Assembly (NCBI GenBank): GCA_944363045.1
Contig: CALVTT010000002.1
Span: 14,474-78,473, forward strand
DNA from: an uncultured Clostridia bacterium
Lineage (GTDB): Bacteria; Bacillota; Clostridia; Christensenellales; Borkfalkiaceae
Length of the DNA stretch: 64,000 nt
Reading direction: 5' to 3'
The notes under the pieces are model-generated. The model saw only the letters and a program-made list of their open reading frames with translations, was not told where the DNA came from and ran no database searches. Positions 49 through 45,614 of the stretch are shown here, piece after piece. How positions within the stretch are numbered: position 1 is the stretch's first letter; each line of letters starts with the position of its first letter. A program made the translations under genes and the position numbers.

Positions 49-1293
49 ATGGGGAAAGTCGTTGTCATCGGCGGGGGAGCCGCTGGGCTCATGGCGGCCT
101 ATGCCGCAGGCAGCGCAGGCGCCGAAGTAACTCTTTTGGAAAAAAACGAGAAGCTCGGCAAAAAGATATATATCACGGGAAAAGGCAGGTGCAATCTCAC
201 CAACGACTGCCCGCCCGATGAGTTTTTGCAAAACGTCGTCCGCGGCGGCAAATTTCTGACGGGCGCCGTGTGGTCCTTCCCGCCCGAGGACATGATCTCT
301 ATGTGCGAGCACTTTTCCATGCCCGTCAAAGTAGAGCGGGGGAACCGCGTCTTCCCCGTCTCCGATCACGCGAGCGATGTGACAAAAATGCTCGAACACG
401 CCTGCCTTTCGGTGGGAGTAGACATTCATTTGCACGAATATGTGCAGAAAATCGGCGATTTGCATAGTACTATGCGTGACATAATAACAGACAAATCGGT
501 CTATCCCTGCCATTCTGCCGTCATAGCGACGGGCGGGCTCTCCTATCCGTCTACGGGCTCCACGGGCGACGGGCTGCGGTTTGCCGAGGAACTCGGCCAC
601 AAAATCGTGCCCTGCGTGCCTTCGCTCGTCGGGATCAACTGCAAGGGCGATTTTAAGGAGCTTCAAGGCATCTCCTTAAAGAACGTCTGCCTGTTTGCAA
701 AGCGCGGCGGCAAAGTTATTTTTTCCGAGCAGGGGGAGATGCTTTTCACGCACTACGGCATCAGCGGGCCGCTCGTTCTGACGCTCTCCGCCCGCATCAA
801 CCGCCTTCCTCTCAACGAGATAACCCTTTTCCTCGATCTTAAGCCGGCTCTCAGTGCTCAAATGCTGGACGCCCGCCTCGTACGCGATCTTACGGAACGC
901 AAGAACGAACAGCTCAAAAACGTGATGCGCGGGCTCCTGCCCGCCGCCCTCTGCCTGCCCGTACTCTCCGCCGCCGAAATAAGCCCCGTCAAGCAAGCCA
1001 ACGCTTTGACAAAAGAGGAGCGTGCCGCCCTCGTCTTTGTCCTCAAAAATTTCCCCGTCCAGCCCGTCTCCCTGCGCGGCTTTGAAGAGGCCGTCGTCAC
1101 ATCGGGCGGGGTCGATCTCAAGGACATCTCATCCAAAACGATGATGAGCAAACTTGCCCGCGGCGTCTTCTTTGCAGGGGAAGTGCTCGACGTCGATGCC
1201 TACACGGGCGGCTTCAATCTGCAGATCGCTTTCTCGACGGGAAGAGCCGCCGGGCTCGCCGCCGCAGAATATGCGGGAAATTTTGCCGAATGA
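49..1293 (+). CDS. NAD(P)/FAD-dependent oxidoreductase, HI0933/BaiN-like flavoprotein
   Basis: ORF 34..1293. It has the dinucleotide-binding motif VVVIGGGAAGLMAA, GGLSYPSTGSTGDG, and the C-terminal GEVLDVDAYTGGFNLQ typical of the HI0933 family. ATG at 49 has GAGGAG 7 nt upstream; the track start at 34 is TTG. Repeat copy 461-486 lies in frame. Confidence 0.85.
   Translation: MGKVVVIGGGAAGLMAAYAAGSAGAEVTLLEKNEKLGKKIYITGKGRCNLTNDCPPDEFLQNVVRGGKFLTGAVWSFPPEDMISMCEHFSMPVKVERGNRVFPVSDHASDVTKMLEHACLSVGVDIHLHEYVQKIGDLHSTMRDIITDKSVYPCHSAVIATGGLSYPSTGSTGDGLRFAEELGHKIVPCVPSLVGINCKGDFKELQGISLKNVCLFAKRGGKVIFSEQGEMLFTHYGISGPLVLTLSARINRLPLNEITLFLDLKPALSAQMLDARLVRDLTERKNEQLKNVMRGLLPAALCLPVLSAAEISPVKQANALTKEERAALVFVLKNFPVQPVSLRGFEEAVVTSGGVDLKDISSKTMMSKLARGVFFAGEVLDVDAYTGGFNLQIAFSTGRAAGLAAAEYAGNFAE
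461..486 (+). repeat. Palindromic element copy 1 (TGCATAGTACTATG-CGTGA-CATAATA), in frame inside the flavoprotein CDS
   Basis: It is identical over 23 nt to the copy at 11211-11233. It contains the self-complementary 12-mer CATAGTACTATG. It is read as TTG CAT AGT ACT ATG CGT GAC ATA ATA = LHSTMRDII. Confidence 0.9.
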
Positions 1294-1294
1294 T

Positions 1295-1323
1295 TTGACT
1301 TTATGCGCACTTTCCGATATAAT
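1295..1323 (+). promoter_or_regulatory. Sigma-A type promoter for aroH-cmk (TTGACT-17-TATAAT)
   Basis: TTGACT at 1295-1300, a 17-nt spacer, and TATAAT at 1318-1323. The ATG at 1358 has a GAGGAA Shine-Dalgarno sequence. Confidence 0.55.
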
Positions 1324-1357
1324 AAAGCCATACGAATGATATAGTGAGGAACAGAAC

Positions 1358-3105: not shown

Positions 3106-3106
3106 G

Positions 3107-5230: not shown

Positions 5231-5247
5231 TCGTCATTTTGATCGTA

Positions 5248-10887: not shown

Positions 10888-10916
10888 AGTATAGCACATT
10901 TGAACGAAGATTGCAA
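10888..10916 (-). promoter_or_regulatory. lexA promoter (TTGCAA-17-TATACT)
   Basis: On the minus strand, TTGCAA (10916-10911), a 17-nt spacer, and TATACT (10893-10888). Confidence 0.55.
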
Positions 10917-10927
10917 ACAAATGTTCT
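10914..10927 (-). promoter_or_regulatory. Candidate SOS (Cheo) box AGAACATTTGTTTG overlapping the lexA -35
   Basis: The minus strand reads GAAC-ATTT-GTTT, one mismatch from the Gram-positive GAAC-N4-GTTC core. Its position suits autoregulation. Confidence 0.5.
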
Positions 10928-10954
10928 ATTGAAAAGAAAAAAATCAGAAAAAAG

Positions 10955-10983
10955 TTGTCATTTTTTTTGATAAGGGGTATAAT
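10955..10983 (+). promoter_or_regulatory. Sigma-A type promoter for the small Cys-rich ORF (TTGTCA-17-TATAAT)
   Basis: TTGTCA at 10955-10960, a 17-nt spacer, and TATAAT at 10978-10983. It is divergent from lexA. Confidence 0.55.
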
Positions 10984-11012
10984 AGAGGGAGAAAGATGAA
11001 AGAGGGAACAAC

Positions 11013-11198
11013 ATGGAAAGGATCAAATGTATCTTAGACGAAACGAAAGACTGCGACAACTGCATGGAATGTGAGATCTGCGACCTCGATCCCAATAAAA
11101 TATGTGATAACTGCGGAAAGTGCCTTGAGATCAAAGACTATGCCGCCATTAAGATCGATAGGGTCTTTACTGACCCCAAAGAGTACCATGAAAATTAA
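11013..11198 (+). CDS. Small Cys-rich hypothetical protein (61 aa, 8 Cys: CDNCMECEIC ... CDNCGKC)
   Basis: The ORF has a GAGGGA SD 6 nt upstream and its own consensus promoter. It has CxxCxxCxxC and CxxCxxC metal-binding-like spacing. I do not recognise the family. Confidence 0.5.
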   Translation: MERIKCILDETKDCDNCMECEICDLDPNKICDNCGKCLEIKDYAAIKIDRVFTDPKEYHEN

Positions 11199-11210
11199 AA
11201 TATGCCTTTT

Positions 11211-11236
11211 TGCATAGTACTATGCGTGACATACTA
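11211..11236 (+). repeat. Palindromic element copy 2 (TGCATAGTACTATG-CGTGA-CATACTA), intergenic
   Basis: It is identical over 23 nt to copy 1. It lies between convergent stops: the Cys-rich ORF stop at 11198 and the hflX stop at 11249. Confidence 0.9.
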
Positions 11237-11248
11237 TTGTGATTTACT

Positions 11249-12466
11249 TCAGCTTTTGCGGAATTTAAGCACTTTATCTGCATAAATAGCGGGAACGATC
11301 GCCTTGACCGACATCCCTTCATCCGTATAAGACACGCTCCTCTCCGTCAGCAGGGAACGGAGCGCTCCATATGCAGAAAAGTCTTTATAGGGGATATTTA
11401 GCTCGCAGCGTAAAAAATTGTCCTCTAATGCCTCGAAGATTTTTGCCCGCAAAGTGTCCAATCCCTGTCCGTATTTGGCTGAGATCGCAATACCGTCATG
11501 AGGAAGCGCATCAAGATCTTCGATCTTATCGCATTGATTGTAAACGATGAGGTAGGGCGCCGTAAAGCCCATGCCGCGCAATGTATTTAGCGTTGTTTGC
11601 TTTTCAAGCTCATATTCTCCCGCCGCATTGCAGACGATGAGCGCAAGATCGCACCAAAGAGCGCTCTCGAGCGTCGATTTGAACGCCTCGATGAGGTGAT
11701 GGGGAAGGCTTTGCAAAAAGCCGACGGTATCGATGAGAAGAAAAGGCACGTCTTCAACGGTAAAAGAACGGGAAGTCGGGTCGAGGGTCGCAAAGAGCGC
11801 ATCTTTAACCAGCACATCGGCGCCCGTCATGACATTTAAGAGCGTTGACTTACCCGTATTCGTATATCCGACAAGGGCAACCGTGAGCACCTTGTCTTTT
11901 TTTCTGCGCTCTGCAAGCATCGTCCGCCGCTGCTGCGTCTCGGCAAGTTTTCTCTCCAGCGCATCGATGCGCGAACGAATATGACGGCGATCGGTTTCCA
12001 GCTGAGTTTCTCCGGGGCCGCGCGTCCCGATCCCACCGCCAAGCCGCGAAAGCGCCTCGCCCTTGCCGCGAAGTCTGGGGTAGAGATATTTCAACTGAGC
12101 CAGCTCCACCTGGATCTTGCCTTCACTGCTCTCGGCACGCAAAGCAAAGATATCGAGGATGAGCGTCGTGCGGTCAATGACCTTGCGCCCCTCCAAAGCA
12201 GCGGAAAGATTGAGAGTCTGGGAAGGGGAGAGCTCACCGTTAAAGAGAACGGTCACATCCAATCCCTCCAACATCATGCGTATCTCTTCGGCCTTTCCTT
12301 CCCCGATATAAGTTGCGGGATTGACCTCGCGGATCCTCTGATAGACGGTACCGGCATAGTCGGCGTTGGCGCTCTCGATGAGCGCGACGGCTTCCTCCTG
12401 CAATACACGGTAATTATCACTCTCAATAGGTTGTATTACAAAAACACGTTCTTTTTCTTGATTCAT
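11249..12466 (-). CDS. hflX: GTPase HflX
   Basis: It has the HflX N-terminal domain plus G motifs GYTNTGKST and DTVGF. Its ATG overlaps the recombinase stop (ATGA). Confidence 0.9.
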   Translation of the reverse strand: MNQEKERVFVIQPIESDNYRVLQEEAVALIESANADYAGTVYQRIREVNPATYIGEGKAEEIRMMLEGLDVTVLFNGELSPSQTLNLSAALEGRKVIDRTTLILDIFALRAESSEGKIQVELAQLKYLYPRLRGKGEALSRLGGGIGTRGPGETQLETDRRHIRSRIDALERKLAETQQRRTMLAERRKKDKVLTVALVGYTNTGKSTLLNVMTGADVLVKDALFATLDPTSRSFTVEDVPFLLIDTVGFLQSLPHHLIEAFKSTLESALWCDLALIVCNAAGEYELEKQTTLNTLRGMGFTAPYLIVYNQCDKIEDLDALPHDGIAISAKYGQGLDTLRAKIFEALEDNFLRCELNIPYKDFSAYGALRSLLTERSVSYTDEGMSVKAIVPAIYADKVLKFRKS

Positions 12467-13518
12467 GTTTCATCCTTTTTATGATCTCTGAGGCGGATCG
12501 CATTGGCGACGGACTTTCGGTGATCTTCCGTGATGGCGGCATAGTGTTTTCGCGTCGTATTGACGTCCTTATGCCCAAGCACGTCGGCAACGATATAAAT
12601 ATCGCCCGTCTCACGGTAAAGGCTGGTCCCGTAGGTTGAGCGAAGCTTATGCGGCGTGATTTTTTTGAGAGGGGAGACGATTTTTGCGTACTTTTTGACC
12701 AAATTTTCCACGGCTCTTACCGTAATGCGCCTATATTGCATAGATAAAAAGAGGGCGTGTTCCTCGGGCGGAACGCGAGGGTCATCCTCCTTTTGGGCGA
12801 GATAGGCTCCCAAAGCGTCCCCGACTTCTTCCGAAAAATAGAGCACGGCTTGATTTCCGCCCTTGCGGGTCACCAAAAAAGAATTTGTTGAAAAATCAAT
12901 GCTCTCATTGTTGAGCCCGACAAGCTCAGAGATACGGATGCCTGTACCCAAAAACAAGGTCAGGATGGCCGTATCGCGGATCTTTGTCTTGGAATGGTAT
13001 CCCTCGGCGTGCGAAGAGAGGCCGTTCCCTTCCTCTGCAACGTCGAGGAGCGAACTTACCTCATCCTGTTCAAGGCGGATGATCTCCTTTTCATGCAATT
13101 TAGGGGTGGGGACTTTGGCGGTATTATTGACATCGATCAAACCCTTATTGAAAAAATACTTAAAAAGAGAACGTACGGCAGAGAGCTTGCGCGCTTTCGC
13201 GCGCTCATCGCAGGAGAGGCGCTTGCCGCGAAAAGAGTAGTTGGAAAGATAGCTTAAATAGATCTCAATGTCCGTATCTGTGACCCGTTCAAGATCTTCC
13301 AATGTAAGCTCTGAGACCTGCCTTCCGCGGAAACGCTTTTTGACGAGAAAATCAAAGAAGATGCGCAAATCATAGCAATAGTTAAGGCGCGTGAGAACGC
13401 TCGTACGCATCTCCACGCCGCGCAAAAAATCTTCGCAGAAAGAGGGGAGCTCCTGCAAAAGCCCCTCGATGCGATCCAAGTTTTTTAAGTTGCGCTCCTG
13501 ATAATAATCTTGCTTCAT
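12463..13518 (-). CDS. Site-specific tyrosine recombinase, XerC/XerD family
   Basis: It has an N-terminal SAM-like domain and the catalytic region GTGIRISE, HKLRSTYGT, LGHKDVNTTRKHY (R-H-R-Y). ATG 13518 is preferred over GTG 13596 because a consensus promoter lies inside the extension. Confidence 0.8.
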   Translation of the reverse strand: MKQDYYQERNLKNLDRIEGLLQELPSFCEDFLRGVEMRTSVLTRLNYCYDLRIFFDFLVKKRFRGRQVSELTLEDLERVTDTDIEIYLSYLSNYSFRGKRLSCDERAKARKLSAVRSLFKYFFNKGLIDVNNTAKVPTPKLHEKEIIRLEQDEVSSLLDVAEEGNGLSSHAEGYHSKTKIRDTAILTLFLGTGIRISELVGLNNESIDFSTNSFLVTRKGGNQAVLYFSEEVGDALGAYLAQKEDDPRVPPEEHALFLSMQYRRITVRAVENLVKKYAKIVSPLKKITPHKLRSTYGTSLYRETGDIYIVADVLGHKDVNTTRKHYAAITEDHRKSVANAIRLRDHKKDET

Positions 13519-13524
13519 GAACAC

Positions 13525-13553
13525 ATTATAGCACGGAATTTCGATCTCGTCAA
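13525..13553 (-). promoter_or_regulatory. Sigma-A type promoter (TTGACG-17-TATAAT), -10 ends 6 nt before ATG 13518 (leaderless candidate)
   Basis: The minus strand reads TTGACG (13553-13548), a 17-nt spacer, TATAAT (13530-13525), then GTGTTC and the ATG. Confidence 0.5.
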
Positions 13554-13643
13554 TCAAAGAGAAGATATTTTTACGAATAGTTAAGGGGGGCTGCACTACG
13601 GCTCCCCGCCATTCTATGAAAAAAACTTGCCGAGGGGAGAGAT

Positions 13644-13681
13644 ATAACTATTCGCAAAATGCCGATTTTAAGAATAGTTAT
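13644..13681. repeat. Perfect 10-bp inverted repeat ATAACTATTC-N18-GAATAGTTAT upstream of the recombinase gene
   Basis: The arms are 13644-13653 and 13672-13681. A third partial copy, CGAATAGTTAA, lies at 13574-13584. Confidence 0.8.
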
Positions 13682-13890
13682 GCTAAAAATTACAGAAAAG
13701 AGATGTTTTTGTCTCGTCGCAAAAGAAAATTTGGTAAAAGATTATCGTGCAGGTAAAATTGAATGCGGGAGAACGTCGGGTAACATACAGGCGTCTGTCT
13801 CATCGCATGAGAGCCATCGGTGCAGTTACGCTATATGATTTGTCGTATGGCATCGCTTTGCTCTGTGCCAAAATGAGCTTACTCAATTCA

Positions 13891-13925
13891 AAAAAGGATA
13901 CTATGCGTGACATAGTATCCTTTTT
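13891..13925. terminator. Bidirectional terminator formed by palindromic element copy 3 (AAAAA-GGATACTATG-CGTGA-CATAGTATCC-TTTTT)
   Basis: It has a perfect 10-bp stem and a 5-nt loop, flanked by A5 and T5. It begins 8 nt past the GH13 stop (13928). It shares the 16-mer TACTATGCGTGACATA with copies 1 and 2. Confidence 0.8.
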
Positions 13926-13927
13926 CT

Positions 13928-15754
13928 TTACTTGACACGGGCAATGATCCCGTATTCTCCTTTCTTGACGACGAGCTCGTCTTGAAACTTTACACCGCTC
14001 AGATATTCCTTATAGCTCCCATGAAACTTCAGGCGATATTGGCAAGAACCGCGGTTGACATAGATATAGACGCTTCCTGCCGCCGACTTTCTTTCATAGA
14101 GAAGAAACGTCTGATTTGCATAGACTTCCCGGTAAACACCGTCACGGAACACATCGATGAGTGAATTCCGCACTCTTCCCAACTGTTCGTAAAAACTTCT
14201 TAGCTGAAGATCGCCGTTCTCCCAATCGTAGCAGCCGCGGCAGAACGGATCGCTGTAACCCTGCATCCCGATCTCGTCGCCGTAATAGATACAAGGTACG
14301 CCGGGGAGCGTAAACTGCACGACGGCACCCATTTTCAGAAGCTCTTTTGCCGCAGCCAGCTCTTTTTCATTGAGTCTTGTTACAGCCATCTCATCCTTAC
14401 ATTGACAGCTCTTGCCGCCGAGAACGGTAAGGATGCGCGCTGTGTCGTGCGTCCCCAAATGGTTCATCAAGCAGTCGAGCGTCAATTTGGGATAATGGTC
14501 GATGAGCATGGCGATGGTCTCGCGCAGGCGACTCGTATTCCCCGAGAGAAGGAAATGGATCACGGCATCCTTGAGTGGATAGTTCATCACGCTGTCCAGC
14601 TCCTCGCCCTGAAAATACTCACGGCGCTCACCGTAGGCGATCTTATTGGAGGCGTCCTCCCAAACTTCACCGATGATGATGGCGTCGGGATCCTGCTCCT
14701 TCGCGGCTTTTCTGAGTTTCTTCAAAAAGAAGCCGGGGAGCTCATCGGCGACGTCGAGGCGGTAGCCGCCGATGCCGTGCCTGAGCCAAGTCTTGATGAC
14801 GCCGTCCTCGGAAAACATAAAGTTTTGGTAGCTTTCGGAACTCTCTTTGATGGCGGGAAGCGTCTCCATCCCCCACCAGCTGTCATAAGAATCGCGGGAG
14901 CCATGAAAGGTGTACCAATCATAGTAAGGCGATTTTTCCGACTGATATGCCCCGAGGCTCGGATAGTTGGAATAGCGGTTAAAATAGCGGCTGTCATCGC
15001 CCGTATGATTGAAGACCCCGTCCAGAATGACGCGCATCCCCCTTTTTTTTGCATCGGCAATGAGCGCATCGAGATCCTCTTTCGTTCCTAAATTGGGATC
15101 GATCTCCATATAGTCACCTGTATCGTAACGGTGATTGGAGTAGCACTCAAAGATGGGATTGAAGTAGATTATGGTCACACCGAGCATCTTCAGATAGCCA
15201 AGCTTTTCGTGTACGCCCTTGAGATCGCCGCCAAAAAAGTCATTGTTAAGGACTTTCCCTTCTCCGTTGGGGCGATAATATGGCTGTTCACCCCATTTGC
15301 GCATGACGCCGTGTTTGATCGGCTCATTCCCCGAGCGATAAAACCGATCGGGGAAAATCTGATACATGATGCCGCCCTTGAACCAATCCGGGGTCTTGTA
15401 GCTCTCGTCATAGACGGTGATCTCCCAATTGACGGGATTGCTGCTGAACATACGGCTCCTATGGAAGGTGCCGCTGCCGAGAAAGCGGCCGCCGACGGCA
15501 AAGTAATAGAAGAAGAGCCCCGGCTCGTTAAATTTCAAAGAGATCGTCCAGCCAAAATCTGTGCGGCTCATCTGGTAATAATGGTAATTCTGCCCATCAC
15601 GCCGCAGGACAAGATTACAAACTTCAGCGGAGAAATAATCTTCTCCGCCGGGGTACTTTTCTTTGTAGACGTTTAATCTTACAACAGTCTTTCTTGGAAT
15701 CGCGCCGACAATGCTCTTACACGCCCGATCCAACGGGTTATAATATAGATCCAT
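13928..15754 (-). CDS. GH13 alpha-glucan hydrolase (neopullulanase/amylopullulanase-like)
   Basis: GH13 conserved regions are present: DGVFNH, GYRLDVADE, GEVWED, NHLGTHD. ATG 15754 has GGAAAGAG upstream; the longer track start abuts the glgP stop. Confidence 0.8.
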   Translation of the reverse strand: MDLYYNPLDRACKSIVGAIPRKTVVRLNVYKEKYPGGEDYFSAEVCNLVLRRDGQNYHYYQMSRTDFGWTISLKFNEPGLFFYYFAVGGRFLGSGTFHRSRMFSSNPVNWEITVYDESYKTPDWFKGGIMYQIFPDRFYRSGNEPIKHGVMRKWGEQPYYRPNGEGKVLNNDFFGGDLKGVHEKLGYLKMLGVTIIYFNPIFECYSNHRYDTGDYMEIDPNLGTKEDLDALIADAKKRGMRVILDGVFNHTGDDSRYFNRYSNYPSLGAYQSEKSPYYDWYTFHGSRDSYDSWWGMETLPAIKESSESYQNFMFSEDGVIKTWLRHGIGGYRLDVADELPGFFLKKLRKAAKEQDPDAIIIGEVWEDASNKIAYGERREYFQGEELDSVMNYPLKDAVIHFLLSGNTSRLRETIAMLIDHYPKLTLDCLMNHLGTHDTARILTVLGGKSCQCKDEMAVTRLNEKELAAAKELLKMGAVVQFTLPGVPCIYYGDEIGMQGYSDPFCRGCYDWENGDLQLRSFYEQLGRVRNSLIDVFRDGVYREVYANQTFLLYERKSAAGSVYIYVNRGSCQYRLKFHGSYKEYLSGVKFQDELVVKKGEYGIIARVK

Positions 15755-32441: not shown

Positions 32442-32481
32442 TTTCTCTCACTTTTTCTGCAATTTTGAGCATGTCATCGAT

Positions 32482-32506
32482 ATTATGCCTGACATAGTAC
32501 TCTGCA
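32482..32506 (-). repeat. Palindromic element copy 6 (minus strand TGCAGAGTACTATG-TCAGG-CATAAT), 7 nt past the dac stop
   Basis: It differs at 2 positions from copy 5 over 25 nt. It is preceded by an extra inverted repeat, ATGTCA (32471-32476) / TGACAT (32490-32495). Confidence 0.85.
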
Positions 32507-32512
32507 AAATAC

Positions 32513-33649
32513 TCAATTCCAATATTTCGCTCCCTCCCGGAAGGCCTCTCCGTAGGAAAAAGGCGCCGCATCCTGCAAACTTAAAAGCGCGCAGCGGTCG
32601 ATCTCCACGCCGTCCTTCATAAGAACGATCTCCCCCACGATATCGCCCTTTTGAACGGGCGCGCGCAGGGAGACGGGCAAAACAGGCTCACAGCGCACTT
32701 CCGCTCTCTTGTCCTTTGGCACAAAGACGCCGAGAGAGCGTTCGGGCGTGACCGCCGCCTCCTTCACAGAGCTCCCTTTGACCGCGACGAGTTCTCCAAA
32801 CGGCTCCCCCGCCGCCGCTGCGACGCGCCTTTCATAGCCCGCGAACGTCTCGTTCATGAGGCGGGAAACCGTCTCAAAGCGCCCATCCGAGCTCTTGGCG
32901 CCGATGACGACGCAGATAAGGCGCGTATCACCCCGCTTGGCCGTCGCCGCAAGGCAGAAGCCCGCCTCCTGCGTATAGCCCGTCTTGCCGCCGTCGCACC
33001 CGTCGAGCCCGCGCAACAGTTTATTGGTGTTGGTCATCGTCGTCACGCGGCCGTCGGGGTGATGAAAATCTTCGAGGCGCACGCCCGCATAGGCATAGAA
33101 CTGTTCGTGCTTCAAAAGCTCGCGCAGCATGAGGGCGACGTCCCTCGCACAGGAGTACTGAGGCTCGCGCGGAAGGCCGGTGCAGTTGGCAAAGAGGGTA
33201 TCGCCCGCCCCCAGCTCGCGGGCGCGTTCGTTCATGCGCGCCACGAAAGCTTCCTCGCTGCCCGCTAAACGTTCGGAGACCGCCACGCAGGAATCATTGG
33301 CGGAGCACACCACAATGCTCTTCAACAGCTCGCCCGCAGGATAGGAGAGCCCCGCATCCAGAAACACCTGCGAGCCGCCCATGCCCGCCCCACGTTCGCT
33401 CACCGCGATCTCCTCCGTGAGGGTGAGTTCCCCCGCTTCCACCGCCTCAAAGGCGAGGAGCAGCGTCATCACCTTGCACATACTTGCAATGGGCAGATGC
33501 GTCCTCTCGTTCTGCGCGGTGACCACGGTCCCGCTCTCCGCCTCGCACACATAGGCGGCCTTGACATCCTCTTGCGGGGAGGCCGCGTTCCCCAAGCAGA
33601 CGAACAGCGTCAAAAGGAGCGCCGCCGCGATCGATATTGTTTTCTTCAT
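32513..33649 (-). CDS. D-alanyl-D-alanine carboxypeptidase (serine-type, PBP5 family)
   Basis: ASMCK (SxxK), SAND (SxN), KTGYT, a signal peptide MKKTISIAAALLL and a C-terminal PBP5-C-like domain are present. The start is ATG 33649 or TTG 33676. Confidence 0.8.
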   Translation of the reverse strand: MKKTISIAAALLLTLFVCLGNAASPQEDVKAAYVCEAESGTVVTAQNERTHLPIASMCKVMTLLLAFEAVEAGELTLTEEIAVSERGAGMGGSQVFLDAGLSYPAGELLKSIVVCSANDSCVAVSERLAGSEEAFVARMNERARELGAGDTLFANCTGLPREPQYSCARDVALMLRELLKHEQFYAYAGVRLEDFHHPDGRVTTMTNTNKLLRGLDGCDGGKTGYTQEAGFCLAATAKRGDTRLICVVIGAKSSDGRFETVSRLMNETFAGYERRVAAAAGEPFGELVAVKGSSVKEAAVTPERSLGVFVPKDKRAEVRCEPVLPVSLRAPVQKGDIVGEIVLMKDGVEIDRCALLSLQDAAPFSYGEAFREGAKYWN

Positions 33650-33684
33650 GCCGTTAGCTTGTGAAGAGAGCCGCAAATTATACC

Positions 33685-37917: not shown

Positions 37918-38666
37918 GCGGCTTGAGCTAAGAACCGATATTTGGGGATGGCCTCGCCCTCCTTTTCGAGGAAGACGACGTATTCCACATTTTTTTGCGG
38001 GCGGACAGGCGCATTGACGATGCCGCGCGGCATGAGTGCGAGCGCCTGCGCGGTATCATAAAACGCATCGAGGAGCGCCGCATGGTGGGAAACGGGCAGG
38101 ATGCCGCGCTTGGAAAGCCCCCTGCCGCCGCACTCGAACTGCGGCTTGAAGAGGACGAACGCTTTCCCGTGCGCGGGCAAAATATCGCGGACGGCGGGCA
38201 GGACGAGCTCCAACGAGATAAAGCTGAGGTCGGAGACAACGCCGTCCACCGGGAAGGGAAGCATCTCTTTTTTGAGATAGCGCGCATTGGTGCCGTCCAT
38301 CACGGCAATGCGTGGATCGGCCGCAAGCGAGGGGGCGAGCTGGCTCTCCCCTACATCCACACAGACGACCGCCCTTGCGCCGCGCTGCAAAAGGCAGTCG
38401 GTGAAGCCGCCCGTGCTGGCACCGAGATCGCAGTATCTCTTACCCGAAACGTCCTCCTCGAAAGCGTCCAGCCCGCGTGCAAGTTTATAGCCGCCGTTAC
38501 TGACGAACTGCTCTTTGGGCGCGGGAAAGGTAAAGACATCGTCATCTTTCACCTCGTCATCGGGAGAGAGCGGCCTCCCCGAACGCAGCACGAGCCCCTT
38601 TTTGAGCGCCTCAGCCGCTTTGGTGCGCGAGCCGAAGCGCTCTGCAAAATACTTATCGGCGCGCAT
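37905..38666 (-). CDS. tlyA: TlyA-family rRNA (cytidine-2'-O)-methyltransferase
   Basis: MRADKYFAERF is an S4-like N-terminus, and LGASTGGFTDCLL is the FtsJ SAM motif. ATG 38666 overlaps the dxs stop; the longer track ORF is an antisense extension into dxs. Confidence 0.8.
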   Translation of the reverse strand: MRADKYFAERFGSRTKAAEALKKGLVLRSGRPLSPDDEVKDDDVFTFPAPKEQFVSNGGYKLARGLDAFEEDVSGKRYCDLGASTGGFTDCLLQRGARAVVCVDVGESQLAPSLAADPRIAVMDGTNARYLKKEMLPFPVDGVVSDLSFISLELVLPAVRDILPAHGKAFVLFKPQFECGGRGLSKRGILPVSHHAALLDAFYDTAQALALMPRGIVNAPVRPQKNVEYVVFLEKEGEAIPKYRFLAQAARLV

Positions 38667-40431
38667 AATGCTCCCTGATGCAGGCGAGGACGGCGTCCTC
38701 ATCGAGGCCGTACTCCCGCATGAGATCGCCCACCGCACCGTGCGGAATGAAAGCATCGGGATAGCCGAAGGAGAAGATCTTTTTCCCGCTGCTGCGGTAA
38801 AAACGGGAGACGGCATCTCCCAGCCCGCCGATGAGGACGTTGTCCTCCAACGTGATGACGGTATGCGCCCCGATCGCCGAAAGCAGACCTTCGTCGAGCG
38901 GTTTCAAAAAACGTGCATTGATGAGCGTCGCATCCAAGCCCTCGCGCCGCGCGCGCCAAAGGACGCGGCGGGCGATATGCAGGCATCGCTCCCCTGCCGC
39001 AAGCAGTACTATGTCTGACATAGTACTATGTAAAACTTCAAATTTCCCCATTTCGAGGCTGCTTTCAGGCTGTTCCGCCCCTTCCGTGCTCTCTCTCGGG
39101 TAACGGATAGCGAGCGGGCCGTCCATATGGATGCTCATGCGCAGCATGGCGCGAAATTCAGCGATATCCTTGGGGATGGCGATGGTAAGGTTGGGGATGA
39201 GAGAAAGATAGGAAAGATCGAACACTCCCTGATGCGTCTCCCCGTCTCTCCCCGTTATGCCCGCGCGGTCGATGCAGAAGACGACGGGCAGAGCCTGCGC
39301 GCAGACGTCATGAATGATCTCATCATAGGCGCGCTGCAAAAAGGTGGAATAGATGGCGTAATACGGCCGCATCCCCGCCGCCGCCAGCGACGCACAGAGG
39401 ATGGAGGCGTGCTCCTCGCAGATGCCCACATCGAAGGCGCGCCCCGGGAATTTTTCAAAGAAGCCGCGAAGGCCCAAGCTGTCCGTCATGGCAGCCGTCA
39501 CGGCGATGACGCGCTTGTCCTTTTCCGCCAGACGCGCGAGCTCCTCGCCGAGGGCCGCGGAGTATTCCGTTCCGCCGCCGCTGCCCACGCCGTGCGTTTC
39601 GGTGGGCGCATTCTCGCAGAAGGCGTGCCCGAAGCCCTTGCGCGTATGGACGTGGAGCAATACGCTCCCCTCTTTGAGGGCGGCTTTCGCCTGTTCCAAA
39701 GAAGCAAGGAGCTCGCCCATGTCGTGCCCGTTGACGACGCCCATATACCGAAGGCCGAAGTGCTCAAAGAGGCGCACATCCTCTGCGGGGATGGCATCCG
39801 CGCGGCCGCTAAGCTCACAGCAGGAGCCGCGAAGTTCCTCTCCTCCGCATCCCTCTCCCGCCGAGCGCATCTCTTTGAGAACGGCCGCCATGCTCCCCAC
39901 CGTCTCCGAGATGGACATCCCGTTGTCGTTGAGCACGATGAGGACGTTGGTCTTTAATATCTTTAAGCTGTTGAGCGCCTCATAGATGAGGCCGTTGTTG
40001 AAGGAGCCGTCGCCGACAAGAGCGATGACCGCATGATCCTCCCCTTTGAGATCGCGCGCCTTGGCAAAACCGAGCGCCGCCGAAATGGCCGTGCCCGCAT
40101 GGCCCGTGCCGTAGCAGTCGTACTCGCTCTCGCCGCGCTTGGGGAAGCCCGAGAGCCCTCCTTCCTGCCGAAGGGTGCGAAAGGCTCCCACCCTGCCCGA
40201 GAGCAGTTTGTGCGCATAGCACTGATGCCCGACGTCGAAGACGATCTTATCGCGCGGGAAATCAAAGACACGGTGCAGGGCAACGGTGAGCTCCACCGCT
40301 CCCAGATTGGAAGAAAGGTGCCCGCCGCAGACGGAGACAGCCGAAAGGATCTCCTCCCTGATCTCCCCGCAAATGTCCTTTAATTGAGAAGGGGAAGCAC
40401 GCTTGAGCTCCCCGCTTACGATCTCTCTCAT
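38653..40431 (-). CDS. dxs: 1-deoxy-D-xylulose-5-phosphate synthase
   Basis: GGHLSSNLG and the TPP motif GDGSFNNG are present, with transketolase-like middle and C-terminal domains. It carries repeat copy 4 in frame (EVL-HSTMS-DIVLL). Confidence 0.9.
   Translation of the reverse strand: MREIVSGELKRASPSQLKDICGEIREEILSAVSVCGGHLSSNLGAVELTVALHRVFDFPRDKIVFDVGHQCYAHKLLSGRVGAFRTLRQEGGLSGFPKRGESEYDCYGTGHAGTAISAALGFAKARDLKGEDHAVIALVGDGSFNNGLIYEALNSLKILKTNVLIVLNDNGMSISETVGSMAAVLKEMRSAGEGCGGEELRGSCCELSGRADAIPAEDVRLFEHFGLRYMGVVNGHDMGELLASLEQAKAALKEGSVLLHVHTRKGFGHAFCENAPTETHGVGSGGGTEYSAALGEELARLAEKDKRVIAVTAAMTDSLGLRGFFEKFPGRAFDVGICEEHASILCASLAAAGMRPYYAIYSTFLQRAYDEIIHDVCAQALPVVFCIDRAGITGRDGETHQGVFDLSYLSLIPNLTIAIPKDIAEFRAMLRMSIHMDGPLAIRYPRESTEGAEQPESSLEMGKFEVLHSTMSDIVLLAAGERCLHIARRVLWRARREGLDATLINARFLKPLDEGLLSAIGAHTVITLEDNVLIGGLGDAVSRFYRSSGKKIFSFGYPDAFIPHGAVGDLMREYGLDEDAVLACIREHYARR
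39005..39032 (-). repeat. Palindromic element copy 4 (plus strand AGTACTATG-TCTGA-CATAGTACTATGTA), in frame inside dxs
   Basis: It has a perfect 9-bp inverted repeat with a 5-nt loop. It shares a 21-mer with copy 5. On the gene strand it reads TTA CAT AGT ACT ATG TCA GAC ATA GTA = LHSTMSDIV. Confidence 0.9.
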
Positions 40432-40449
40432 ATCCTTGCAGCCCTTATA

Positions 40450-42574: not shown

Positions 42575-42627
42575 CTTTCTCCTCTGCAAAGGGAATTTCC
42601 CCGTCCGCACGGCGGACGGGGTCTCCC

Positions 42628-43008: not shown

Positions 43009-43045
43009 AATACGACCTCCTTGGAGGTATGATCTCTTTTTAGGT

Positions 43046-43051
43046 ATTATA
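43046..43051 (-). promoter_or_regulatory. TATAAT -10 box upstream of asp23-nusB-folD, without a good -35
   Basis: The minus strand has TATAAT at 43051-43046. The -35 region is occupied by the proximal direct repeat (see 43056-43091). Confidence 0.35.
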
Positions 43052-43055
43052 GCAC

Positions 43056-43091
43056 ATCTTTCCGTATTTTACCACTATCTTTCCGTATTTT
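43056..43091. repeat. Two perfect 15-nt direct repeats ATCTTTCCGTATTTT, period 21 nt
   Basis: The copies are at 43056-43070 and 43077-43091. They lie immediately upstream of the TATAAT box of the asp23 operon and downstream of spoIIIAH. Confidence 0.85.
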
Positions 43092-43105
43092 TACGGCGAT
43101 TTTTT

Positions 43106-43591: not shown

Positions 43592-43621
43592 TTTCTATCT
43601 CCTTCAAAATGATTTCCAAAA

Positions 43622-43969
43622 TTATGAAAGATACACCTGCACTCTTTCTTTGGGGAGCCCGAGGGCGGAGGAGGCGATATCGAGGATGCGAATGCGCGAG
43701 AGGATGCTGTCCTCCCCGCGGAAGACGACGATGCAGGAGACCGCTTCCCCCTCCTCCTCGACGACCATCACCGAGGCCTCCTCGATGCCTTCCACGCGCT
43801 CGAGCAGCGCCGAGATGCGCGCCTCCGCCTCCGTTTCGTCATAGGAGGCCGCCTCTCCGCTTCCGGCAAAGAACACCCGCCAGACGGCAAAGAGCAGCAA
43901 CAGCGCCACGAGACAGAACAGCACGGCACGCATCGTTTTGTTTTCAAACAGCTTTTTGAAGTCTTTCAT
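43622..43969 (-). CDS. spoIIIAG: Stage III sporulation protein AG (short form, 115 aa)
   Basis: It has an N-terminal TM segment plus a C-terminal motif (LERVEGIEEASVMV ... IVVF). Its position is between AF and AH. It is much shorter than B. subtilis AG. Confidence 0.55.
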   Translation of the reverse strand: MKDFKKLFENKTMRAVLFCLVALLLLFAVWRVFFAGSGEAASYDETEAEARISALLERVEGIEEASVMVVEEEGEAVSCIVVFRGEDSILSRIRILDIASSALGLPKERVQVYLS

Positions 43970-44424
43970 GAGAGGATCTCCGCCTCGCATCCGAATTTGT
44001 TTTCGAGTGCCGCCTCGATCTGCAACGATATATCTATATGCGCCTCCCCTGCGTATATTCCGAAGTCAGAGATACGGACGCTGACGCTTTTTGCCGAATA
44101 GCTGCCGTCTTCCCAAAGGTCGACCTCCGATTCCGCCGCAATGCCGTATTCCGCTTGCAGCCACTCCTCAAGGGCGAGCTCTTCCTCGCGTTCGGCGCGC
44201 TGCGTACAGGCGGAAAGAAAGGCGGCGTCTTCCGAAAATGAGGGCAGTTCCGCCGAAAACGCCGTGCCCCGCAAAAGAGAAATGACGGGCGATATGAGCA
44301 GGATGAGCGTGATAAGTTTTGCCATGCCGCGGATGAGCGGAGCAAGCCTGCCGTCCGGCAAGACAGCGGAAAGGACAGCGGAGAGCAAGACCGCCCCGGA
44401 GAGGGAGAGGATATACGCCTGCAT
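43966..44424 (-). CDS. spoIIIAF: Stage III sporulation protein AF
   Basis: It has two N-terminal TM helices (ILSLSGAVLLSAVLSAVLPDG) and sits in the expected operon position. The ATG overlaps the AE stop (TGATG). Confidence 0.6.
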   Translation of the reverse strand: MQAYILSLSGAVLLSAVLSAVLPDGRLAPLIRGMAKLITLILLISPVISLLRGTAFSAELPSFSEDAAFLSACTQRAEREEELALEEWLQAEYGIAAESEVDLWEDGSYSAKSVSVRISDFGIYAGEAHIDISLQIEAALENKFGCEAEILS

Positions 44425-45614
44425 CAGAGCACCCCCGAACTGCAAACAAGAAGGAGCAGCGTCAAAAAATAGAGAAAGGCAACAGAAAGAAGAGAGGCCG
44501 TGAAATAGCCAATATCGCCGGCAAGACGGGACAAAAGCGCGGGGATCTTGCCGCCGACGGGCTCCGTAGCTGCCGCCGAGATGCGCAGAAAGAGCTGCAT
44601 CGCCCCGAGGAGCAACAGGGGCTTCAGGACGACCGCGGCAAGGAGCAGCACGGAAAAAGAGCCGAGCGCGTTCTTGATAAGGGCGCTGCCTGCAAGCACG
44701 AGATCGACGCTGCCCGAGAGAAACCCGCCGACGACGGGCACCGACCCCGAAACGACGTATTTGACAGTACGAAGGGAAATGCCGTCGTACTGTGCGGCAG
44801 CAATGCCCTGCACGGTGAGAAAGAGCCCGAAAAGCCCCAAAGAGAGCCCGATGAGCCAGCGGCAGATGCTCTTGAAAAAATCGCCGAGTTTTTCCGTGCG
44901 CACCTCGCTTGAAAGATCCCCCACAAAACCGAGAACGAGCACAGCCACCGAAACGGGCAGGACGACCGCCGTAAACAAATTCAATATACCACCGCTCAAA
45001 AAAGCAACAGCAGGTCGAAAGATCGCCGCAGAGACGTTGCCGCCGGACGCCGCCATCAGCGTGAGAAGAACGGGATAGACGAGCTCCATCTGCACGCCCA
45101 GCGCCTCTATGGCGGAAAGGCAGGAGGACAGCACCGCAAGCAGACAGGACAGCACGACCGCCCCCACCGCAAGATAGGCTATAAAGCCAATTATGTCTGA
45201 CATAGTACTATGCAAAAAGCCGCTTTTCGCAGAGTTTAGAATGCCGCAGAGCAGGCTCGCCGCCAGAATGATGGCAAAAGCGGGTAAAAGTACGGAGATT
45301 TCATCCAAAAAAGTGTGCAGGACACTTTCCGCCAGAGAGCCGTAATCGAGGGAAAGATCGCCGTCGATGAGCGCTTTCAACCTGTCTTTGAGGGAAATAC
45401 CATGAAATTCGCTCAGCGTATCGAGGTACGCCTGCAACTCGGCAAGATCAAGTTCGTCCAATAAATCGGAAATATTTTCTTGAAGTTCTTCCTCTGCACT
45501 CTGTTCAGCCTCTCCCATCTCCTCCGCCCCTGCGTGATAAATTTCTCCGCCCGCAAAGAGAAGTATCAAAGGTATGAAAAGTAAGAAAAGTAAGATACAT
45601 TTTTTCATATTCAT
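44424..45614 (-). CDS. spoIIIAE: Stage III sporulation protein AE
   Basis: It is a signal peptide plus polytopic membrane protein of about 396 aa in the AE position. It carries repeat copy 5 in frame (GF-LHSTMSDII-GF). Confidence 0.8.
   Translation of the reverse strand: MNMKKCILLFLLFIPLILLFAGGEIYHAGAEEMGEAEQSAEEELQENISDLLDELDLAELQAYLDTLSEFHGISLKDRLKALIDGDLSLDYGSLAESVLHTFLDEISVLLPAFAIILAASLLCGILNSAKSGFLHSTMSDIIGFIAYLAVGAVVLSCLLAVLSSCLSAIEALGVQMELVYPVLLTLMAASGGNVSAAIFRPAVAFLSGGILNLFTAVVLPVSVAVLVLGFVGDLSSEVRTEKLGDFFKSICRWLIGLSLGLFGLFLTVQGIAAAQYDGISLRTVKYVVSGSVPVVGGFLSGSVDLVLAGSALIKNALGSFSVLLLAAVVLKPLLLLGAMQLFLRISAAATEPVGGKIPALLSRLAGDIGYFTASLLSVAFLYFLTLLLLVCSSGVL
45190..45214 (-). repeat. Palindromic element copy 5 (minus strand TGCATAGTACTATG-TCAGA-CATAAT), in frame inside spoIIIAE
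   Basis: On the gene strand it reads TTG CAT AGT ACT ATG TCA GAC ATA ATT = LHSTMSDII. It is flanked by direct GGCTTT (Gly-Phe) repeats 33 nt apart. Confidence 0.9.

Follow-up and report, generated by a model that had tools for sequence, protein, structure and literature searches.

A short AT-rich palindromic motif recurs six times, inside genes and just past stop codons, in a 64,000-nucleotide stretch (the window) of a contig from an uncultured Clostridia bacterium. We asked what this motif is: a mobile element, the site of a dimeric DNA-binding protein or an RNA hairpin acting on 3' ends, as the first-pass annotation had proposed, or a site of some other kind.

Six copies in the window and the wider family

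All six copies were located where the first-pass annotation had placed them and on the same strands. In the window, CATAGTACTATG occurred four times exactly and once with 1 mismatch (0.02 expected), and TACTATG-N5-CATA with up to 2 mismatches gave 23 matches (3.8 expected). These results confirm that the six-copy family is real and far above chance, as had been claimed. A position-weight scan of the whole window and the 10 kb to its left found no additional copies. The window contains 47–62% GC and is therefore only moderately GC-rich, less so than first described. The 16-mer TACTATGCGTGACATA is common to copies 1–3, as reported, and copies 1 and 2 are indeed identical, over 25 nt instead of 23. 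The shared 21-mer had been assigned to copies 4 and 5, which have only 13 nt in common; it belongs to copies 5 and 6. At least 6 contigs of independent metagenomic origin encode an identical DXS protein, with the motif-encoded peptide unchanged, and 19 encode the flavoprotein of copy 1, which indicates that the copies are not an assembly artefact.

Copies 1, 2, 4 and 6 are supported by the position-weight scan and orthologues, copy 5 by the scan and homologue alignment, and copy 3 by folding and orthologues. The three coding copies are in frame, as first noted, and share an identical frame and sense (3/3). Copy 1 (ATTTG-CATAGTACTATG-CGT-GACATAATA; 458–486, + strand) encodes LHSTMRDII within an HI0933-like/aminoacetone-oxidase-family flavoprotein gene (49–1293); its phased A/T flanks run from about 397 to about 538, and orthologous copies were found at loci L024, L038, L056 and L057. 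Copy 5 (TTTTA-CATAGTACTATG-TCA-GACATAGTA; 39007–39035, − strand) encodes LHSTMSDIV within dxs (38653–40431), and its right arm has the symmetric form. Copy 6 (TTTTG-CATAGTACTATG-TCA-GACATAATT; 45189–45217, − strand) encodes LHSTMSDII within spoIIIAE (44424–45614) and has orthologous copies at L018, L055, L059, L068, L091, L113 and L123–L125.

The other three copies lie just past stop codons as described, at 6–12 nt rather than 7–13 nt. Copy 2 (core 11208–11236, + strand) occupies a convergent spacer, 12 nt past the stop codons of both a conserved 61-aa Cys-rich ORF (11013–11198, + strand) and hflX (11249–12466, − strand); the orthologous site in L039, L130 and L131 has the symmetric form. Copy 3 (13891–13925) is itself symmetric, AAAAAGGATACTATG-CGTGA-CATAGTATCCTTTTT, and has no assigned strand. 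It lies 7 nt past the stop codon of a GH13 amylase gene, is the sole window copy that forms a strong hairpin or bidirectional terminator (z = −9.8), and has symmetric counterparts in L039, L130, L131 and L132. Copy 4 (TTTTG-CAGAGTACTATG-TCA-GGCATAATA; 32481–32509, − strand) lies 6 nt past the stop codon of a D-Ala-D-Ala carboxypeptidase gene (32513–33676), upstream of the sigma-70-like promoter of lysA (32413–32384) and of a terminator-like hairpin recognised by eye; it is kept in the equivalent spacer of L123, L124, L125 and L132, where the flanks diverge.

Copies beyond the window are to be expected of a dispersed family, and the family is widely dispersed there: we counted at least 119 loci, spread over about 60 genomes from a single clade of uncultured, Christensenellales-like gut Clostridia. 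The core consensus is TTTTG-CATAGTACTATG-YSW-GACATAAT, with the near-palindrome TAYTATGTC-W-GACATARTA as its general form and AGTACTATG-N3-GACATAAT as its most conserved part. Tandem partial units occur at L010, L036, L048 and L086, and full 33–39-nt palindromes at some loci (L066, L112). Copy density is about 1 per 10–60 kb, and we estimate tens of copies per genome, over several large contigs.

A logo of 128 unique copies gave a core of about 27–29 bp with 0% G/C at −13/−12. A/T content peaked upstream at −64, −54.5, −44, −33.5, −22, −12.5 and −3 and downstream at 20.5, 30.5, 41, 51.5, 61.5 and 72.5. The A/T-tract period was 10.5 bp on both sides and the signal was gone past about −70/+80, so that the phased region around the core spans about 140 bp, with about 55–65 bp per side. 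The phasing was equally present in non-redundant coding copies, and the peak-trough contrast was positive in 27/27 copies; the A/T-content profiles of intergenic and coding copies correlated near the core (r = 0.79 for the near flanks) but hardly at all farther out (r = 0.10 for the far flanks). The phased coding copies span at least 7 unrelated protein families, and phasing kept within so many unrelated coding sequences indicates selection on duplex DNA shape.

Origin in place, placement and convergence on the terminus

Comparison of the coding copies with PDB homologues revealed no indel at the motif. Among DXS homologues, the motif column changes from LHSTMSDI to LHKGNSSV/LHKADSNV, and most of 120 homologues, with identities as low as 63%, have the dxs motif at that same place in the alignment. 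The dxs, spoIIIAE and dacB-lysA spacer copies keep orthologous positions across genomes whose DXS proteins are 66–81% identical; L123, L124 and L125 carry the motif at these three sites, apart from one that L125 has lost. In the dacB-lysA spacer, the motif block is conserved and the flanks are not alignable. These results show that the motif arose in place, even inside essential genes, and that its positions are conserved across genera.

A copy was present in 24/92 convergent regions versus 1/94 divergent regions (Fisher p = 1e-7). Intergenic copies were co-oriented with the upstream gene in 75 cases versus 6, and sense copies lie a median of about 21 nt past stop codons. Some copies, such as one before thrS, precede a ribosome-binding site and start codon by 4–30 nt, and terminator-like hairpins stand upstream of the motif at 13 loci and downstream at 18. 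The neighbouring genes form a functionally mixed housekeeping set; the 119 loci showed no link to rRNA genes or to other genes with high expression, and the motif was absent from viral contigs. Among 123 cases, copy orientation agreed with the adjacent gene in 112, with the GC-skew strand in 109 and with the majority gene strand in 111, and adjacent copies had like orientation in 20/22 pairs. Polarity relative to replication is not cleanly separable from co-orientation with transcription; where genes and skew conflict (skew above 0.03), the motif sides with the skew 5 times versus 1.

The window contains a XerS-like tyrosine recombinase gene (12466–13518, − strand), assigned by NCBIfam, orthologues and synteny. 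XerS was its best NCBIfam match, at 200 bits, below the 267-bit cutoff. Orthologues 82–86% identical occur in many species, and the glg operon–xerS–hflX synteny is conserved at a gene-orientation switch. A difSL-like site, ACTATTCGCAAAA-TGCCGA-TTTTAAGAATAGT, with 13-bp inverted arms and a 6-bp centre, lies at 13647–13678 (no strand assigned), about 220 bp from copy 3. The same architecture stands upstream of the recombinase gene in L039, L130, L131 and L132, and L066 has two full dif-like sites farther upstream of that gene.

The window copies are on the + strand left of the dif-like site, with copy 2 the innermost polar copy on that side, and on the − strand right of it. CANRHB010000001.1 has xerS at about 108 kb, two + copies at 11 and 15 kb and a − copy at about 170 kb; on CANROE010000001.1, with xerS at about 42 kb, a copy at about 172 kb is −. 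The copies thus converge on the dif-like site and XerS-like gene in the window and on two other contigs. Symmetric copies lie 85–260 bp from the dif-like site in 5 genomes and bracket dif-xerS-hflX. The terminus region of the window is syntenic with 21/119 seed loci; the enrichment near the terminus is at most suggestive because the window was picked for its many copies.

A candidate polar site and the alternatives

We propose, with a probability of roughly 0.45, that the motif is a polar, wrapped protein-binding site for chromosome replication, segregation or topology. It would be a cis-acting chromosomal site kept by selection on double-stranded DNA. A sequence-specific protein, probably dimeric, would read TAYTATGTC-W-GACATARTA, and another dimer may occupy the overlapping CATAGTACTATG palindrome; TTTTGCATAG extends the core on its 5' side only. 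We infer that the flanks are bent or wrapped round the complex to give a particle of about 140–150 bp, whose polarity would come from the one-sided extension and the C/T asymmetry between half-sites. Copies would be placed co-directionally with replication and most genes, mostly at the least constrained spots (3' ends, convergent spacers) and within genes where a spacer is absent, and on both chromosome arms would point towards the XerS/dif terminus. Because the polar copies point to the terminus, we suggest that the complex acts directionally on something moving along DNA towards the terminus; candidates are a replication fork, a motor of the FtsK/SpoIIIE or SMC type, and the supercoils that these push. 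Such a site would join the logic of Ter/KOPS sites to a gyrase- or nucleosome-like wrap. The dimeric-protein proposal of the first-pass annotation survives in this general form, with the 140-bp phased flank, polarity and terminus convergence added; a promoter-type operator does not, given the single copy among divergent regions.

The main specific rival, which we regard as unlikely, is that each copy is a strong DNA gyrase site built into the chromosome, comparable to REP/BIME-2 or the SGS of phage Mu. On this view, the core would serve as an optimised G-segment with phased flanks for wrapping the GyrA C-terminal domains, and copies at 3' ends and in convergent spacers would clear positive supercoils. 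The convergent-over-divergent bias is the twin-domain expectation and a direct prediction of a supercoiling role, whereas the polar-site model needs an added assumption of promoter avoidance. The E. coli gyrase motif spans 130 bp (a 36-bp centre and two 47-bp arms) with a 10.75-bp GC/AT periodicity, and S. pneumoniae gyrase sites show a like phased pattern and a GxxC overhang. The centre of the 12-mer here is GTAC, whose TA step is reportedly the most deformable, and the weak/strong pattern SSWWW-NNNN-WWWSS agrees with the centre of the E. coli consensus. Measured from the GTAC dyad, the upstream-arm A/T peaks lie at 3.5, 18, 27.5, 39, 49.5 and 60 bp, compared with 3.5, 19, 29.5, 38.5, 49.5 and 61 bp in the E. 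coli consensus. Strong gyrase sites are also functionally asymmetric, and the Mu site requires its right arm. However, CATA-GTAC-TATG carries disfavoured bases at −4, −2 and −1 relative to GTAT-NNNN-ATAC, which S. pneumoniae gyrase prefers and the E. coli consensus contains, and topo IV no longer cleaves after the equivalent changes. The flanks show little mirror symmetry about the GTAC dyad (r = −0.11 at 5.5), in contrast to good symmetry about 4.0, 9.0 and 14–14.5, and the downstream arm is displaced from register by about 4 bp. Distant relatives retain AGTACTATG-N3-GACATAAT, but their 12-mer palindrome has decayed to GCAAAG/GCGAAG. An invariant asymmetric core of about 27 bp would be unprecedented for gyrase, a reader of DNA shape rather than sequence. 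The missing link to rRNA and highly expressed genes at the 119 loci also argues against gyrase, which leaves polarity and convergence on dif unexplained.

An improbable alternative is a Xer-related site like the B. subtilis XDS, which a XerS-like protein would bind without recombining, for example in SMC unloading or terminus organisation. The left end and flank of the motif (AAWTT-TGSCG-TTTTGC-ATAGT) resemble the dif-like AAAAT-GCCGA-TTTTAAGAATAGT, ACTAT-GCAAAA is the dif arm ACTATTCGCAAAA less 2 bp, and the symmetric copies near dif and the syntenic seed loci suit this reading. Given the 2-bp gap, however, arm contacts would be out of register, and nothing in the dif-like site corresponds to AGTACTATG-N3-GACATAAT. 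The dif centres vary by species (TGCCGA, CTGAGG, GCTGCA, GTGTAG) and the flank consensus of the motif does not follow them; copies also lie 65–130 kb from xerS and on many other contigs.

Quite improbable, too, is the site of a global transcription factor, acting as a roadblock or regulator, despite a near-palindromic core typical of dimeric regulators and the copies shortly before start codons. Divergent regions hold almost no copies, 24 copies face the 3' end of a convergent gene, and lysA has a promoter of its own downstream of copy 4. Motif conservation is much tighter than that of regulons, the neighbours are mixed housekeeping genes, and the 140-bp flank phasing is left unexplained.

We consider it very improbable that the motif is selfish, without cellular function and spread like a DNA uptake sequence or by gene conversion. 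Origin in place without length change is uptake-like, and coding copies in a preferred frame together with an inverted pair or terminator (copy 3) are in keeping with drive; the density is far below the approximately 1 copy per kb of uptake sequences, polarity is strong, positions are conserved across genera, and 140-bp phased flanks could not be spread by a 27-bp drive.

An RNA-level element (3'-UTR hairpin, processing site or stabiliser), the third of the earlier proposals, is highly improbable. Sense orientation shortly past stop codons and good folding of copies 3 and 5 would fit it, but copies 1, 2, 4 and 6 fold no better than shuffles (z +0.6 to −1.0), stem pair 7:21 is a C-A mismatch in 77% of copies, and Rfam gave no match even at E = 1. 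Terminator-like hairpins stand on either side of the motif, and phased flanks within coding sequence are a property of DNA.

A miniature mobile element (REP/RAYT-type, RPE-like in-frame inserter or MITE), the earlier suggestion that fares worst, is scarcely credible: the dispersed palindromic family, the full palindromes and the tandem partial units recall one, but the copies are not insertions relative to homologues, orthologous positions are kept down to 66–69% DXS identity, typical hairpins are no better than random, target-site duplications and terminal repeats are absent, the annotated genes adjoining each window copy included no recognisable transposase, and viral contigs lack the motif.

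Comparison with known systems

The polar site proposed here can be compared with Tus-Ter of E. coli and RTP-Ter of B. subtilis, which likewise have a conserved core of about 23–30 bp, may lie inside genes, and are polar, with two opposed groups converging on the terminus. The B. subtilis Ter consists of two overlapping imperfect inverted repeats, like the motif here. No similarity in sequence was established. Three differences count against the model: Ter sites are few (about 10) compared with the estimated tens of motif copies per genome on many contigs; Tus-Ter, RTP-Ter and KOPS are not known to have 140-bp phased A/T flanks; and symmetric copies on both sides of dif misfit a simple fork trap.

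With the gyrase motif, Mu SGS and REP/BIME-2, the motif shares a footprint of about 130–140 bp, arms phased at 10.5–10.75 bp around a central segment of about 35 bp, GxxC/GTAC at the palindrome centre, 3'-end/convergent location and the functional asymmetry of strong sites. It differs in its disfavoured core bases, a phasing dyad off GTAC, an invariant asymmetric core, replication polarity and the absence of a link to highly expressed genes and, unlike REP, it is non-mobile.

Like matS/MatP sites, KOPS/SRS and XDS, the copies are dispersed chromosomal cis-sites that arise in place, also within genes. KOPS/SRS are polar towards dif, as the motif is, but are 8-mers at far higher density. Both matS and XDS cluster around dif; matS is a non-polar 13-mer, unlike the motif, and XDS resemble a dif half-site, whereas the motif has only a gapped 11-nt stretch in common with the local dif arm. 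None of these sites is known to have wrapped flanks.

REP and Rickettsia palindromic elements are likewise short palindromic families past stop codons, and RPE also lie in frame within genes. The motif differs from both in that its copies are positionally conserved rather than inserted, mostly form no stable hairpin and have no RAYT gene in sight, and in that its host flanks are under shape constraint too.

Copies of the motif and their anatomy

We recovered all six copies of the palindromic element at the places assigned to them in the first-pass annotation. Copy 1 (458-486, + strand) lies in a flavoprotein gene, copy 2 (11208-11236, +) in the spacer between hflX and a 61-aa ORF, copy 4 (32481-32509, -) in the dacB-lysA spacer, copy 5 (39007-39035, -) in dxs, and copy 6 (45189-45217, -) in spoIIIAE; copy 3 (13891-13925) is symmetric. 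Three copies are, as claimed, in frame in unrelated coding sequences; they are in sense there and encode LHSTMRDII (HI0933-like flavoprotein), LHSTMSDIV (DXS), and LHSTMSDII (SpoIIIAE), and the three reported just 3' of stop codons were measured at distances of 6-12 nt. The 21-mer attributed to copies 4 and 5 is actually common to copies 5 and 6. The 12-mer CATAGTACTATG had four exact matches and one with a single mismatch in the window (0.02 expected), and the looser pattern TACTATG-N5-CATA gave 23 matches against 3.8 expected. A planted sequence or an assembly artefact was rejected, with the identical DXS present on 6 and the flavoprotein on 19 independent metagenome contigs. The window itself falls on an 81-kb contig, BRZ_BS NODE_278.

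From 128 unique copies, the sequence logo yielded the consensus TTTT-G-CATAGTACTATG-YSW-GACATAAT-A. The core contains two overlapping palindromes, CATAGT-ACTATG (centre 5.5) and TACTATGTC-W-GACATAGTA (centre 14). The right arm of the second is usually CATAATA, with A at position 21 in 77% of the copies, which makes the asymmetry of the site systematic. Full symmetry does occur, for example at the motif-bearing loci L066 and L112 on other Clostridia contigs and in window copies 3 and 5. The left arm is GCAAAG, GCGAAG, or ACGAAG in distant relatives while AGTACTATG-N3-GACATAAT is kept, which indicates that the universal unit is the near-palindrome TAYTATGTC-W-GACATARTA. Both upstream and downstream of the core, A/T peaks are spaced 10.5 bp apart, from about -64 to +73/+82 (phasing over about -66 to +75/82), beyond which the signal is lost; positions -13/-12 are 100% A/T. 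The flank pattern is mirror-symmetric about 4.0, 9.0, or 14-14.5, centres that are indistinguishable because of the periodicity. At L010, L036, L048, L026, L064, L086, and L131 (9587-9623 in the last), copies have further half-units (ACTATG-N3-GACATAAT) in tandem behind them, spaced ~18-45 bp, which suggests cooperative arrays at some sites.

The first-pass annotation had made the existence of a dispersed family depend on further copies outside the window or on polymorphism at these sites in relatives. Scanning a single genome of each species for exact matches to CATAGTACTATGNNNGACATA gave at least 119 stretches in ~60 genomes of uncultured Clostridia, which bear the names Gallimonas, Coproplasma, Borkfalkia, or Christensenella(ceae), and ~18% of these seed loci are syntenic with the 64-kb window. 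The loci of the relatives were examined as contig pieces of 8-20 kb. No match was obtained in the viral contigs searched, and an exact-string literature search returned no relevant paper with the motif sequence. The genes upstream of the copies are ordinary housekeeping genes with no evident functional enrichment; 13 universal marker genes, origin-proximal or highly expressed, were all absent from the 119 loci listed, as was rRNA, and tRNA-Trp was within 400 bp of only five copies. There is a weak hint, from a window chosen as copy-rich and from loci that are the matches listed, of tens of copies per genome enriched towards the terminus.

Selection on duplex DNA in coding and intergenic copies

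Selection acts on the duplex DNA, in place. By our own gene calls, 42 of the 129 copies lie within coding sequence (a few are boundary miscalls), spanning at least seven unrelated families: DXS, SpoIIIAE, the flavoprotein, and MiaA-, MurB-, U32-peptidase-, and MutL-like proteins. The A/T profiles of coding and intergenic copies were correlated with r = 0.79 in the near flanks and 0.71 in the distal flanks, against 0.10 beyond, and the 10.5-bp amplitude was 0.12/0.095 in the near flanks versus 0.018/0.005 further out. The peak-trough contrast was positive in 27/27 non-redundant coding copies.

Alignment to solved structures gave no extra residues at the motif in DXS or the HI0933-family flavoprotein. 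In 120 homologues of DXS, with identities as low as 63%, the motif column read LHSTMSDI, LHSTTSDI, or LHSSMSDI with no indel; a few homologues carried LHKGNSSV or LHKADSNV, which come near to L-x-x-G-x-D-V, the usual DXS pattern. At three syntenic loci (DXS 81%, 69%, and 66% identical), the copies in spoIIIAE, dxs, and the dacB-lysA spacer occupy unchanged positions, except that at one of these loci the dxs copy was lost through point changes. The motif block in the dacB-lysA spacer is conserved and the remainder is unalignable. The copies showed neither terminal repeats nor target duplications, and the window genes examined included no recognisable transposase. The absence of indels and the conserved orthologous positions rule out a mobile element of the REP, RPE, or MITE type, the first of three options that had been proposed. 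REP/BIME elements are strictly extragenic, form stable imperfect hairpins, and turn over by insertion with an associated RAYT (IS200/IS605-like) transposase; the motif lies inside protein-coding genes, its copies 1, 2, 4, and 6 have folding z values of +0.57 to -1.03 with A21 breaking the stem, and its orthologous positions contradict such turnover. RPE-like inserts and MITEs fail in that the host proteins are not lengthened. DNA uptake sequences (DUS/USS) occur at ~1 copy per kb and are orientation-neutral, whereas the motif occurs at ~1 per 10-60 kb and is ~90% polar. We estimate a probability of about 0.85 that the motif is a DNA-level, non-mobile protein site.

In regard to gene context, 24 of 92 convergent spacers were occupied versus 1 of 94 divergent spacers (own gene calls, all loci; Fisher p = 1e-7). 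Tandem spacers had a motif density of 0.91 per kb, compared with 0.05 per kb for coding sequence. Between genes, the copies ran in the direction of the upstream gene in 75 cases and against it in 6, at a median of ~21 nt past the stop. These occupancies exclude a sigma-70 promoter or operator, for which the TTGCAT-14-CATAAT spacing is also too short. Copy 4 follows the dacB stop and precedes a terminator-like hairpin (by eye), and the lysA promoter is separate and further on. Sigma-E/F/G/K and T7/SP6-like promoters misfit in their spacings and are excluded by the location statistics. The second option of the first-pass annotation, a site for a dimeric protein, is supported in general terms as a recognition site, which fits a polar nucleoprotein site, and falls as a promoter operator on the near-absence from divergent spacers. 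The motif-internal ATG (positions 9-11) is predicted to start a downstream ORF at ~4 loci, including L079, and the motif at L014 and L045 lies 10-15 nt before the thrS start codon, within the expected thrS leader. The dxs and tlyA frames overlap at 38653-38666, and tlyA in its longest ORF would extend over ~160 nt of dxs; the dxs-internal copy is ~340 nt upstream of the shorter tlyA start (own gene calls) and ~190 nt from the longest-ORF start.

The third option, an RNA hairpin acting on 3' ends, is contradicted by folding, since only the symmetric copies 3 and 5 fold better than shuffled sequence, and copies 1, 2, 4, and 6 do not. The Rfam 15 covariance models gave no match to the motif at the gathering threshold in the whole window, nor at E ≤1 in 10900-14100; the only Rfam match in the window was a tRNA gene (61198-61281, -). 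Terminator-like hairpins were found on either side of the motif, upstream at 13 loci and downstream at 18, and often use its phased A/T tracts as A- or U-runs. An intrinsic terminator was rejected, with a G+C-rich hairpin and U-tract coinciding with the motif only in copy 3 and separate from it elsewhere. At loci with intergenic copies, the intrinsic-terminator hairpins near the motif are in phase with it, their stems beginning at +29 to +36 or finishing at -33 to -39 and -21 to -27, which indicates that their A-/T-runs double as the phased tracts.

Polarity of the motif and the terminus region

The orientation of the motif matched that of the adjacent gene in 112/123 cases, the G-rich strand in 109/123, and the locus majority strand in 111/123, and neighbouring copies were co-oriented in 20 of 22 pairs. 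In cases of conflict between the gene and a clear skew, the motif sided with the skew 5 to 1 (a small sample), a separation of replication from transcription polarity that is suggestive only.

The window contains a XerS-like recombinase gene (12466-13518, -), whose best NCBIfam match is XerS, below the cutoff. A difSL-like site, ACTATTCGCAAAA-TGCCGA-TTTTAAGAATAGT (13647-13678), lies ~130 nt upstream of it, and a lone dif-like arm, ACTATTCGTAAAA (13569-13581), beside the promoter of the gene may be an autoregulatory site. The order glg operon-dif-xerS-hflX, with 13-bp arms and a 6-bp centre, recurs at the related loci L039, L130, L131, and L132; L066 has two full dif-like sites. Gene orientation switches from + to - at ~10.9-14 kb, converging at the junction of hflX and the 61-aa ORF, and this switch, together with dif and xerS, makes the region the probable replication terminus. 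The GC skew of the window is weak, without a clean switch.

On the left of the terminus, copies 1 and 2 are on the + strand; on its right, copies 4-6 are on the - strand. The symmetric copy 3 lies 220 bp from the dif-like site, and a symmetric copy was found 85-260 bp from a dif-like site in 5/5 genomes; with the second copy at the hflX convergence, the dif-xerS-hflX segment is bracketed. On CANRHB010000001.1 (388 kb), with xerS at ~108 kb, the copies at 11 and 15 kb are + and that at ~170 kb is -; on CANROE010000001.1, with xerS at ~42 kb, the copy at ~172 kb is -. These orientations, taken with those in the window, indicate that all oriented copies point to the terminus, from at least 130 kb out. 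Two opposed groups thus converge on the terminus, as expected of Ter-type sites, a pattern that is confounded with gene orientation. A block running from an M50 peptidase gene through scpA and scpB to a pseudouridine synthase gene (window 5.3-10.2 kb) is on the opposite side of the terminus relative to L124, L125, and L130-L132, in which it follows lysA, and this looks like a rearrangement about the terminus.

The Cys-rich 61-aa ORF (MERIKCILDETKDCDNCMECEICDL...; 11013-11198, +) beside copy 2 had no NCBIfam match and has no Pfam match on record in the related loci. It is conserved in L039 and L130-L132, where it lies between hflX and lexA, and its product is a candidate partner of the motif.

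We considered whether the motif might instead be a strong DNA gyrase site. The E. coli gyrase motif covers 130 bp, comprising a 36-bp centre flanked by 47-bp arms with 10.75-bp phasing; pneumococcal gyrase sites are likewise phased and have a GxxC overhang, strong gyrase sites are known to be asymmetric, and the most deformable step lies within GTAC. The motif resembles these in its footprint of ~130-140 bp with ~10.5-bp phased arms on both sides. GTAC lies at the palindrome centre and the weak/strong base pattern agrees, and the bias for convergent over divergent spacers is that predicted by twin-domain supercoiling. With the GTAC dyad aligned, the upstream arm is in register with the E. coli consensus, but the downstream arm is ~4 bp off, the overall agreement is r ≤0.23, and the flank symmetry is poor about the dyad, its centre lying at least 1.5 bp away. 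Moreover, CATA-GTAC-TATG has disfavoured bases at -4, -2, and -1 relative to the preferred GTAT-NNNN-ATAC, the 12-mer palindrome is not conserved in distant relatives, no tie to highly expressed genes emerged (no rRNA, EF-Tu, RpoB, RpsL, or SecY among the 119 loci listed), and the polarity and convergence on dif are left unexplained. Judged from these sequence comparisons, a gyrase site is unlikely; if the motif were one, it would represent the first family of strong gyrase sites that is hard-wired into chromosomes and not mobile. A Xer-related (XDS-like) site is more improbable still: a gapped 11-nt likeness to the dif arm and the proximity to dif speak for it. A dif/Xer recombination site, which has two inverted recombinase arms of 11-13 bp about a 6-8-bp centre, occurs once per chromosome, and for difSL adjoins xerS, was rejected: the genuine dif-like site is separate, and the motif fits only one of its arms, with a 2-bp gap.

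Proposed role and comparison with known sites

For the protein site preferred here, we propose that a sequence-specific protein, probably dimeric, binds the near-palindromic core, with the phased DNA on either side, ~60 bp each, wrapped or bent. The sites, co-directional with replication and converging on dif, would then act directionally on replication forks, on a DNA translocase or condensin, or on the supercoils that these generate. That the motif is a polar nucleoprotein site acting directionally on something that tracks to the terminus has, in our judgement, slightly less than an even chance.

A broader proposal is more tentative. Tens of polar ~150-bp nucleoprotein sites in Christensenellales-like gut Clostridia might constitute a new chromosome-organisation code, read by a putative sequence-specific protein. 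Each site would consist of a 27-bp core with nucleosome- or gyrase-like wrapped flanks, at positions conserved for the age of the clade and written into dxs, spoIIIAE, mutL, murB, and miaA, and the sites would converge at XerS/dif, the terminus being bracketed by symmetric copies. If such a code exists, the HSTMSDI peptide is forced into unrelated proteins. A DNA constraint (the 27-bp core plus ~120 bp of helical phasing) shapes the protein sequence of essential enzymes, a caution that conserved peptides need not be protein-level features. The motif would also be a practical marker of replichore orientation and terminus position in the fragmented MAGs of the clade. As an explicit, high-information, direction-sensitive signal in a widespread and mostly uncultured gut order, it could be used as bait for the protein.

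To our knowledge, almost nothing is known of replication termination, terminus organisation, and supercoil management in chromosomes outside the relatives of E. coli and Bacillus. The system proposed here would be a high-density one of polarity or termination, unrelated to Tus, RTP, KOPS, and MatP. The sites known to us (parS, NBS, SlmA SBS, matS, the CodY box, Fur 9-1-9, NarL, PadR, LexA, and B. subtilis Ter) have only short strings in common with the motif: presumably AGTACT for the SlmA SBS, which we take to be GTGAGTACTCAC, TC-W-GA for the CodY box, and CTATGT for the B. subtilis Ter consensus. The motif belongs with the dispersed chromosomal cis-acting architectural sites, and as far as we know it is alone among them in combining a high-information polar core, a putatively wrapped flank of ~140 bp, positional conservation, and embedding in essential coding sequences.
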